From positions 183,024,001-183,088,000 of the forward strand of contig OX597814.1 in NCBI GenBank assembly GCA_951406725.2: DNA of 64,000 nucleotides, read 5' to 3'. The stretch comes from Octopus vulgaris. Its lineage: Eukaryota. The translations under genes were made by a program, and so were the position numbers. The number at the start of each line of letters is the position of its first letter. The stretch's first letter is position 1. Below, one piece after another: positions 9,022 through 56,792 of this stretch. The notes beneath the pieces were generated by a model. The model was not told the origin of the DNA, did not search any database, and saw only the letters and a program-made list of their open reading frames with translations.

Positions 9022-10259
9022 GGAATCTACCTGCGCTTTCGTGTAGCAAAGTTCTGTAACTTTCGCCATGTTCATTTCTAGATACACTCCTCGGGTAATT
9101 ATGTATTTGTTGTCGTGATATAACACTGCCAGACTTTCTTTGACTGGATTCGATTTATGTATAAAACTTCCTTTTTGTTTAAAACGAGCGAAAAAGTTTG
9201 CCGGTAATTTTGTTAATATCGTACAAGTTTGCTTTGTTTTTGTTGCTGTTTTTGTTCAGTTTATGTACTGCAGGTTTGCATTTTTGGCTATTGGATTGTG
9301 ACTGTCTGTGTCTGTGAGTGTATTTATTTGTTTAATTCTAACCTTTTCTGTTAAAAATAAACAAACAAACCCCCCCAAACAAAAAAAAGAAAAACATCTG
9401 TATAACCTTTCTAACATCCGTTTTCGAGTATTCGAAAATTATTTCTTTTAGTATTAAGAACGTATCCCATAGCACTTCCTTTGAATTGTAGCTTTTATTT
9501 TCACTTCTTCAGTAGAAGAAAGTATATTGAATAAAATGTAAACACAAGAAAAAATTTTCCAAGAAAAATAAATTGACTAAAAAATAGAAGTTTTGTGTTT
9601 TTTATATACTGGAGATGTCCCCATTTTCTGAAGCCCTTTGTTAGCAAAATAATTAAAAAAAACCAGAAAAGTTTTCATTTAATAATACTTGATAAGAATG
9701 AATCCAATTTTCTCAGAGCGGACTGAAACAAATCTGCTAACTCCTAAACACAGAAATAATGACGGTCATTCCGTCAATTTCGACATATAAGTGTTTCAAG
9801 GAAAGGAAAGAAAAAACAAAAATGAAAGTTGCGTCTGTTTGCGGTAGATGCATGAATGTAATTTGAGTCCAGGTATGGATTTCGCTATGAAGTCACAATG
9901 GGGACAATGATGATTTATATTTTGCATGGGATTGGACAAATGTGTCTGTTGATTACAGGGTTAAGAATGGGGGTGCTTATCTCCCCTTTGTAAACATAAG
10001 GACACAGGAAATGTGTCAAGGCCGACAGGAAGCGTTGATGCTTCCTAGGGCTAAATAGCGGTTGTGTGATCCCCTTTATTGGACTGTCACGTTATGTTGA
10101 CAGTATACAACTCCTCTATCGTTCCACCACTGCTTATATCTCTCTGAGAAATTTAGAAATTTAACATTTCTAGTTTTTTTTTATTGTTCTGTTTTTTTTT
10201 TTCAAATCCATTCAGATGAATTATGGTACATTTTTTGCCATTCAGATTAATGTACGCAA

Positions 10260-36509: not shown

Positions 36510-36658
36510 TACGTCTTATTTATTATTTTGCATATTACTTAATCATTGTTATATGTTTTATCTTATATTTAATCTTTCTATAATATGTAATTTTTCTAAA
36601 TGGTATAATTTAGTTTTTCACTATTGAATTGATAAAGGGTGTTTTTTTTCTAATTTAC
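36510..36658. repeat. AT-rich interspersed repeat, second copy at 38040-38185
   Basis: TTATTTATTATTTTGCA..TTACTTAATCAT..TTTTCTAAATGGTATAATTTA..TTTTTCTAATTTA in both, each next to TA repeats. Confidence 0.8.
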
Positions 36659-36790
36659 ACATATATAGCGTGTGTGTGTACGCACACACGAGCATCTGCG
36701 TAAGTATATGCATGTGAGTGTAGGCATGTTTATATATGTGTGTGTATGTGAATGCGCGTATATATCCGTATATGTGAGCGTGTGTGTATA

Positions 36791-37736: not shown

Positions 37737-38199
37737 ATAATCAAGACACATAGCGTGAGGTATTTACGTGTAGCAATGCCCTTAATATAAATAAATATAT
37801 TTAATAAGAATAATTAATAATTTTTCCCTTATGAGATTTTTCCACGCTGACTGATAGACAAAGATTTTATCCTGTTTTAAAATTATATATATATATATTT
37901 TAAAACACCTTTTATCTTTAACTTGAAGAGTGGCTATATTTATATTGAAGTGATTTTACTACTACTACTATTATTTTTACTATTATCATTTCTTAAATAT
38001 AGCCACGAAACACGTGTCGTTATTCTACCAAATATATACGTTTTATTTATTATTTTGCACATTACTTAATCATCGTTATATGTTTTATCTTATATTTAAT
38101 CTTTCTATAATATGTAATTTTTCTAAATGGTATAATTTAATTTTTCATTAATGAATTGATAAAAGGTAGTTATTTTTCTAATTTATATATATATATATC

Positions 38200-38558
38200 T
38201 TGGAAGCGGTTACGATGAGGGTTCCGGTTGATCCGAATCAACGGAACAGCCTGCTCGTGAAATTAACGTGTAAGTGGCTGAGCACTCCAGACACGTGCAC
38301 CCTTAACGTAGTTCTCGGGGATATTCAGCGTGACACAGAGAGTGACAAGGCCGGCCCTTTGAAATACAGGTACAACAGAAACAGGAAGTAAGAGTGAGAG
38401 AAAGTTGTGGTGAAAGAGTACAGCAGGGATCACCACCATCCCCTGCCGGAGCGTCGTGGAGCTTTTAGGTGTTTTCACTCAATAAACACTCACAACGCCC
38501 GGTCTGGGAATCGAAACCGAGAGTCCGCTGCCCTAACCACTGGGCCATTGTGCCTCCA
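38200..38558 (-). mobile_element. SINE family C head fused to tail type 3
   Basis: Head CCCTAACCACTGGGCCATTGTGCCTCC; tail CTGCTCGTGAAATTAACGTG shared with family D copies. Confidence 0.85.
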
Positions 38559-38577
38559 CACATATATCTATATATAT

Positions 38578-39051
38578 ATAGAATGGTTGTATACTGTCAA
38601 TCTAACAAGAACGTGACAGTAGGGAGTACACCACCGCTGTATAGCCCTAGGAGGCATCGAACGCCTCCTGATAGCTTTGACACATTTTTTCCCTGTGTCC
38701 TTATATACATATACGAAGGGGAGACAAACACCCCCGGCTGCCGGAACTGCATCTAGGGACACCGTGTTTCAGGATCGTTGTCCTTCATCGGCCTAGAGTA
38801 GCAGACACCGGTCAGCCGGTGATATTTGCCTTGACTTCGTAATTGTATATATTTATATTCAGTGAAGTTTATTCACTGATTATCAAAATAAGAAATATTG
38901 AATTTCTAAATCTCTCGTAGAGACATGTACGGTGGTGGGGCGATAGAATGGTTGTATACTGTCAATCTAACAAGAACGTGACAGTAGGGGGTACACCACC
39001 GCTGTATAGCCCTAGGAGGCATCGAACGCCTCCTGATAGCTTTGACACATT
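38578..39051 (-). mobile_element. hammerhead-bearing element with 109-bp direct repeats 365 bp apart (retrozyme / Penelope pseudo-LTR-like)
   Basis: 38578-38686 equals 38943-39051 with one mismatch; hammerhead between them; TA tract on the left. Confidence 0.7.
38734..38819 (-). ncRNA. type I hammerhead ribozyme with extended bulged stem I
   Basis: Minus strand CCGGCTG-A-CCGG-TGT-CTGC-TAC-TCTAGG-CCGATGA-AGGA(CAACGA)TCCT-GAAA-CAC(G)GTG-TC-CCTAGA-T-GCAG-TT-CCGG-CAGCCGG; GUC cleavage triplet. Confidence 0.85.
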
Positions 39052-39142
39052 GTTTTCGTTTCAGCACACGATCTCAGATCAAATCACTTGCTATGCGAGT
39101 ACATCTCCGTAAATATATATTATTATAATGATAAATCTCAGA

Positions 39143-39222
<80 letters not shown>

Positions 39223-39223
<1 letters not shown>

Positions 39224-39525
39224 GAGGTGCATTGGCCCAGTGGTTAGGGCAGCGGACTCGCGGTCGTAGGATCGCGGTTTCGATTCCCAGACCGGGCGTT
39301 GTGAGTGTTTATTGAGCGAAAACACCTAAAAGCTCCACGAGGCTCCGGCAGGGGGGGTGATCCCTGCTGTACTCTTTCACCACTCTTTCTCTCACTCTTT
39401 CGTCTGTTAGCCTGCTCGCTTAGCCTGCGGGGTGGCGTCATTCGAAGGCTAAAACAATGCGAACGCATTGTGACCAGCGATGTGTAACTACATCTGATGG
39501 ACTAGTCGGTCACGTGATCACGTGA
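39223..39525 (+). mobile_element. SINE family C, tail type 1
   Basis: Same head and tail as 2738-3038, ending CACGTGATCACGTGA. Confidence 0.88.
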
Positions 39526-56754: not shown

Positions 56755-56792
56755 TTGTCCGACGAACGGGAACGTGAAACTCAGAGTAATAG
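56755..56792 (+). ncRNA. minimal hammerhead motif (CCGACGA core)
   Basis: TTGT-CCGACGA-ACG(GGAA)CGT-GAAA-CTC(A)GAG-TA-ATAG. Confidence 0.65.

Follow-up and report, generated by a model that had tools for sequence, protein, structure and literature searches.

Animal non-LTR retrozymes are described as head-to-tail repeats of 150-450 bp with a GC content below 50% and a ribozyme in each, with units of 350-390 nt in Mytilus and 330/350 nt in the axolotl (PMC7229834). Non-LTR retrozymes and their proposed link to Penelope-like elements (PLEs) are already known: PLEs were put forward as retrozyme mobilisers from shared features, co-occurrence and homology to pseudo-LTRs (pLTRs), the latter two in a 2026 preprint (bioRxiv 10.64898/2026.07.22.740005). 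PLE insertions are recognised by partial tandems, by a truncated partner in inverted orientation and by a tail on one side (PMC8557442), and work in vitro on an anole PLE revealed two internal reverse transcription start sites and AT-rich nicking that explain such anatomy (PMC11167929). Ribozyme cleavage was dispensable for the anole element, the main substrate being uncut RNA (PMC11167929). The question addressed here is which enzyme moves animal retrozymes, and whether circles serve as its template. We describe an octopus family in which a non-coding ribozyme unit itself bears the integration signature of PLEs, and it is this family and its anatomy, more than the single copy that led us to it, that are of value. 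The literature that we searched, which covers few subscription papers, yielded no cephalopod retrozyme; the supplement of PMC7229834 may list cephalopods, and the octopus family may already be catalogued in Repbase or Dfam.

The stretch of DNA that we analysed, hereafter the window, comprises 64,000 nt from Octopus vulgaris (contig OX597814.1). A first-pass annotation had placed a minus-strand hammerhead with a GUC site between two 109-bp direct repeats, and this arrangement was confirmed: the repeats (38578-38686 and 38943-39051) are offset by 365 nt and differ by a single mismatch (38625, A vs G). Each contains the AGGAGGC/GCCTCCT hairpin reported earlier (38649-38669, second copy 39014-39034), which is kept in the related A1 family through a G-C to A-U change. 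We numbered the unit 1-365 from 38942 down to 38578, so that the predicted cut falls after unit 185. Read on the minus strand, the copy begins within a 5'-truncated preceding unit that forms the second 109-bp repeat (about unit 257-365; 38943-39051), passes through one complete unit (1-365; 38578-38942, GC 44%), stops at what is the family's main 3' end and gives way to (AT)n, the (AT)-rich flank (38561-38579) being of the usual target type. No target-site duplication was found for this copy. The window locus is thus a 5'-truncated 1.3-unit insertion from a non-coding 365-nt hammerhead repeat family, and the earlier proposal of a retrozyme-type repeat of about 1.3 units is supported by the family's other copies.

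The hammerhead (38747-38804, minus strand; C3 at 38791, predicted cut between 38758 and 38757) has the conserved core and three stems of type I, its sole core deviation being U4C. Calling it intact, as had been done, was too strong, given a core that reads CCGAUGA, not CUGAUGA. The deviation is family-wide, being present in 42 of 44 aligned copies and in 97 of the first 100 listed among exact-core matches. U4C is a known natural variant with lowered activity in vitro (PMC3088659). Stem I is bulged as annotated; instead of about 21 paired nucleotides, it has two helices of 6 and 4 bp separated by a UAC/U internal loop, beyond which the folded unit extends it as a predicted rod (38702-38852, minus strand) for which we count about 48 bp. 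Stem II has the 4 bp ascribed to it, with a CAACGA loop, and is followed by GAA. The CAC/GTG pairing previously assigned to stem III would close a 1-nt loop; a workable form has three pairs (A-U, C-G, A-U) and a CGG loop, with GUC preceding the cut, and an alternative is a duplex of the near-palindrome formed in trans (-9.3 kcal/mol).

An Rfam scan of the window at the gathering threshold gave zero matches. The fold of 38715-38830 had a z-score of -5.39 (0/200 shuffles as good) and that of the 365-nt unit a z-score of -9.06 (0/100), and the circular fold predicted for the unit reaches -135 kcal/mol with 64% paired. At the level of secondary structure, the lowest-energy fold is a competing one, more stable than the active fold by 5.9 kcal/mol, in which loop III pairs with C3-C4-G5 of the core. 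Folding also bears on a TA-like linker (38701-38714) at which two adjacent, independent insertions might have been joined. The linker does resemble a short TA microsatellite; however, it is the 3' strand of the rod, pairs with unit 91-98 and lies in register at the same place in other copies, and we regard the two-insertion reading as refuted, with virtually no probability left to it.

Natural ribozymes from seven families, 27 in all, were aligned for covariation. Pairing is kept in 82.9% of cells, and 18 of the 25 named pairs have substitutions in both partners, among them the replacement of C3-G8 by U3-A8. The covariation score of 0.43 was reached by 0/500 shuffles, a control inflated by the relatedness of the sequences, and slid controls were far lower regardless (0.07-0.15). 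Such strong covariation indicates selection on the ribozyme. The UAC bulge of stem I and a loop II of the form CAAN(G/U)A are largely conserved across related families, and we presume a resemblance to the tertiary contact of Schistosoma. That U4C is fixed in a family with recent success suggests that selection favoured a slowed ribozyme, one that would also shield circles from re-cutting.

A DNA search with the unit returned 90 scored matches, with identities of 95-98% for the best full-length ones, and exact-match counts in the assembly were 412 for the ribozyme core and 840 for the 3' 33-mer. In other copies, repeat and hammerhead are joined in the same order, the check that the first-pass annotation had named, and these copies include dimers and trimers: 28 ribozyme pairs lie one unit (365 nt) apart, at 26 loci, two trimers among them. 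The assembly holds no run beyond three ribozymes, although collapsed arrays could be missing from it. The family stretch is contained in sequencing runs under four organism labels. Related families A1, A2, C, D, E and F share the architecture; matches for A1 to D are at about 68-89%, and for F a BLAST search yielded nothing significant. The core is canonical CUGAUGA in C and D and carries U3-A8 in E and F.

The octopus family falls within the published ranges for animal non-LTR retrozyme repeats and resembles them further (PMC7229834): the 365-nt unit is non-coding, with a head-to-tail period and a GC content of 0.44; the hammerhead is type I with a short near-palindromic stem III; the predicted circle is highly self-paired; dimers and trimers are head to tail; and target duplications exceed 4 bp (11-13 bp, four loci). 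It differs in having mostly dispersed, truncated or inverted copies instead of arrays, in its family-wide U4C and in two fixed 3' ends (PMC7229834).

We considered whether the window locus might itself be an active source of 365-nt circles, as its whole unit, putative promoter and well-folding ribozyme would allow, and as its earlier designation as the best circular RNA candidate implied. A single ribozyme, however, cannot release a unit-length RNA, and the copy stops at unit 365, from where another 185 nt would be needed to reach a second cut site, while two or three ribozymes stand in tandem at 26 other loci; the copy also carries several letters rare in the family, including those at unit 90, 111 and 318. 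In the preprint on vertebrates, the active elements are only those with two or more ribozymes (bioRxiv 10.64898/2026.07.22.740005), and the window locus has one. We therefore hold a source at this locus to be very improbable: with one ribozyme and no downstream tail, no unit RNA would arise by double cleavage, and the copy is likely a dead-end product.

To characterize integration, we assembled 60 distinct insertions, with 101 arms, from 90 loci. Most had been selected for length or ribozyme content, and only the 3' 33-mer loci are free of such bias; the sample is consequently biased against arms ending at unit 186. The 5' ends of the 101 arms are truncated at scattered points. Their 3' ends mostly fall at two fixed positions, unit 365 and unit 55, which are 55 nt apart: 45/101 end at 359-365 and 45/101 at 50-60, usually followed by (AT)n. 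The segment between these ends (unit 1-55; 38888-38942, minus strand), which we call the tail, is internal in the window copy. Two-arm inverted insertions combine one main and one tail end in 24 of 30 cases, the remaining six having one irregular end each, and none of the 30 has two ends of a kind. Outside microsatellites, target duplications of 11-13 bp flank four insertions (L017, L020, L029, L037).

This is the anatomy of PLEs and their pseudo-LTRs, with which the family has in common 5' truncation, partial tandems, an inverted 5'-truncated partner, a tail at one end only, (AT)n targets and a hammerhead (PMC8557442; PMC11167929; PMC4209133). The octopus unit departs from them in lacking an ORF, the whole element being the repeat unit, in a tail of 55 nt vs the 30-40 nt described for PLEs and in a full type I ribozyme in place of the minimal metazoan PLE form. 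The family integrates with Penelope-type anatomy, and a PLE enzyme is its likely copier; PLEs with reverse transcriptase and GIY-YIG domains are abundant in the genome and end in (AT)n. The first-pass annotation had set a retrozyme from a circular template against a Penelope partial tandem. Both aspects are present, yet they are no true alternatives, the family being non-coding while bearing PLE anatomy. The preprint reached the same conclusion on the mobiliser, arguing from co-occurrence and pLTR homology in vertebrates (bioRxiv 10.64898/2026.07.22.740005), whereas our argument is from integration anatomy, and we found no homologous pLTR at the 20 GIY-YIG loci examined.

That every integration hallmark is of PLE type, and that vertebrate retrozymes are related to pLTRs (bioRxiv 10.64898/2026.07.22.740005), could also mean that an autonomous PLE has the unit as its pseudo-LTR, the window locus being a short 3' remnant of it. 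We consider this improbable. What lies upstream of units is another unit, flank, an inverted arm or a second mobile element, element X (below). A tblastn search of 174 sequences with a family match, in which most matches were SINE artefacts of the queries, revealed no arm with a co-oriented PLE ORF immediately on its 5' side. Sequence like the unit, whether as 3' module or pLTR, was likewise absent from 20 examined of 148 scored GIY-YIG loci, in a genome with many more PLE families. The full type I ribozyme is also unlike the minimal forms at PLE ends in this genome. Given the lack of unit homology at the 20 loci and of PLE ORFs upstream of arms, the family is non-autonomous. One abundant PLE family (L073, L078 and others) has open frames of 781 aa, a minimal U3-A8 hammerhead and a short tail of its own, and ends in (AT)n.

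We next weighed what the enzyme copies. None of the 101 arms stops at the cut site (184-188), in a sample with some bias in favour of arms that contain a ribozyme, and the sequence runs seamlessly across this site in about 105 of 111 ribozyme copies. The assembly has roughly one ribozyme core for every two 3' ends (412 vs 840), which argues that 185/186 is no strong barrier. The 5' ends of arms do not accumulate at the putative start (117-122, X junctions aside) or at 186. The arms of one insertion share alleles in 507 of 547 variable-site comparisons, vs 66% between insertions, and mismatch at 2.1-2.2% vs 3.7%, which points to one template molecule or one source locus. The seamless crossing of the cleavage site favours a circular template, and since no long master array was seen, a circle is the best explanation for the regeneration of multi-unit copies. 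We therefore think it probable, on balance, that this is a non-coding 365-nt hammerhead family with Penelope-type scars, that a Penelope-like enzyme is the likely maker of its cDNA, on a predicted circular RNA template, and that the window locus is a 1.3-unit insertion of this family.

Under this model, a locus with two tandem ribozymes would be transcribed, probably from an internal TATA promoter with a start near unit 117. Both U4C hammerheads, probably acting slowly or as a dimer, would then cleave 3' of unit 185, and the 365-nt circle would be closed by a host ligase, by analogy with described retrozymes (PMC7229834). A PLE complex of reverse transcriptase and GIY-YIG endonuclease would then nick (AT)n DNA and start cDNA at two sites, unit 365 and unit 55, frequently with each strand using a different one, paralleling the in vitro result for the anole PLE (PMC11167929). 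As cDNA rolled past the junction, random stops would leave inverted arms as well as partial tandems. The circle model becomes testable now that it comes with exact start sites (unit 365 and 55), a cut site (185) and 26 two-ribozyme loci.

Some of the evidence points the other way, circle and cleavage both being predictions. The tail, at 55 nt, is long for a PLE, and the U4C core and competing fold would also suit a family, still non-coding and PLE-mobilised, whose template is a linear uncut multimer, or linear RNAs joined by precise template jumps, with a weak ribozyme and rare or irrelevant circles. The anole PLE used uncut RNA (PMC11167929), the octopus copies span the cut site, and composite RNAs containing element X appear to have been copied across an internal ribozyme (L157, L174). 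Among Xenopus retrozyme dimers, eight of nine showed no cleavage in vitro (bioRxiv 10.64898/2026.07.22.740005). Linear copying with 5' truncation would, however, shorten the element in each generation, given a maximum of three ribozymes in a row in the assembly; 5' ends do not pile up where a linear RNA would begin; and covariation indicates selection on the ribozyme. A linear template therefore seems fairly unlikely to us, and a circular one remains our preferred reading.

Transcript data added little to this comparison. No runs recorded as RNA were listed as containing the family stretch. Four presumed-RNA runs mapped on a dimer locus (L011) provided contigs only, from which ends, strand and circles are not readable, and the loose ends of these contigs pointed to related families A1/A2. 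A single contig (L011:1815, run X18) has an unusual end at unit 51, antisense to the ribozyme strand; we assume that it resembles a template-switch adapter.

The right flank of the window locus holds a feature that, like the U4C core, was absent from the first-pass annotation: a foreign tail (39049-39120, plus strand), in opposite orientation, from another PLE-like repeat that we term family B. It is joined through an ATT microhomology (39049-39051) and followed by AT-rich sequence. Family B is a high-copy repeat with inverted arms and a tail of ~65 nt (L032-L036, L228-L239, besides the window); the short copies examined showed no ORF, ribozyme or link to any ORF. With a main-end arm on one side and an opposite B tail on the other, the locus mimics a normal insertion built from two different RNAs, and a second chimeric-looking case (L052) was present among 23 single-arm insertions. 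Insertion beside an older B copy followed by a deletion explains the layout equally well. No joint corresponding to the empty site was found among four DNA-type sequencing runs mapped to the window, because both flanks are very high-copy repeats. A T4 run just past the tail was considered as a Pol III terminator and found no support.

In two copies (L002 and L051), a long upstream sequence common to both was joined at unit 117. This sequence, element X, is 1.65-1.85 kb long and has one ORF of up to about 480 aa with a weak CCHC knuckle (Pfam E 0.017); look-alikes of its protein are ZCCHC3-like and RNA-binding. One protein search gave no longer homologues and another 387 unnamed relatives. Hammerhead cores lie 25-40 nt downstream of 40 of 62 X 3' ends under a tolerant ribozyme test (background 176/20000); a strict scan found 22/62 because it rejected a mismatch at the base of stem II. 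By eye, a further 7/62 precede the same site and another such element, and 15/62 are elsewhere. Full-length copies are flanked on both sides by 14-20-bp duplications of the target site, different X subfamilies stack there (L172, L212, L221), and, over the 62 sites and the loci L172, L174, L175, L212, L221 and L224, X occupies one homologous site in at least seven retrozyme families. In the window copy this site (unit 117-133; 38810-38826, minus strand) is a putative transcription start and contains no X.

Element X appears to be an ORF1-only element of L1/Tx1 type. It is like the target-specific Tx1-clade LINEs in its fixed site inside mobile elements and in stacked insertions split by duplications, and differs from them in targeting diverged retrozyme families and other TATA-preceded sites (PMC4494074). 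The literature searched, with few subscription papers, contained no description of a LINE that targets retrozymes or start sites. One stack of X relatives ends in a LINE with AP-endonuclease and reverse transcriptase domains (L240:1204-4577, minus strand; also L216, L217), a candidate partner of X, and X itself is presumably akin to HAL1-type ORF1-only elements. In a tree of 39 of the 62 ends, all A-hosted copies form one clade, as expected of hitchhiking. The tree is partly host-discordant: a copy in F (L191) is 98.5% identical to one in A1 (L160). PLE-type inverted insertions contain X at two loci (L157, L174), and a third (L224) has a ribozyme-to-ribozyme unit of 2036 nt with an open ORF.

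In five of six unrelated hosts, the X duplication starts 19-31 nt after a TATA-like box (by eye; background 4.2%); in the retrozyme families, X sits about 25-30 nt past such a box. The hosts with a box are retrozymes, L218-type, L249, L211 and L251, and the one without is L241-type; the box is also missing from L191, a copy hosted by F, and from four truncated copies at other places. This pattern suggests that X targets transcription starts and that the retrozyme promoter is the TATA-like stretch at 38845-38859 (minus strand), with a start near 38826. Survival of promoter-fed X copies could give the same picture. X insertions may thus map the retrozyme promoter and may reveal start-site targeting by a LINE. 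Beyond this, we tentatively picture a three-tier parasite system, which we think possible and no better than that: Penelope priming at two internal sites of a circular ribozyme-made RNA, with both inverted arms from one molecule, and ORF1-only L1/Tx1-type elements homing to the retrozyme transcription start across diverged families, creating ribozyme-to-ribozyme RNAs of 1.2-2.1 kb that encode a zinc-knuckle protein and are re-spread by Penelope.

Several other repeats came to light. A repeated unit with CCAAT and TATA boxes (L218, L250, L274, L276, L277) is another fixed target of X relatives. Within the window, an older retrozyme relative (9969-10177, plus strand; 75-78% identical) is 5'-truncated at about unit 208 and has the tail and no ribozyme. 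A degenerate hammerhead-like motif (37923-38198, plus strand) has a 13-bp stem II broken by a long insert; downstream of it is a 3' end from a different repeat family, which recurs at 36580-36667 and in L052 is joined to the retrozyme arm. A further minimal hammerhead family with core CCGACGA occurs at 56759-56788 (plus strand) and in L071. The locus is flanked head to head by a very high-copy SINE-like repeat (about 38300-38560, minus strand, and 39220-39520, plus strand), in which tRNA-type A/B boxes can be made out by eye.
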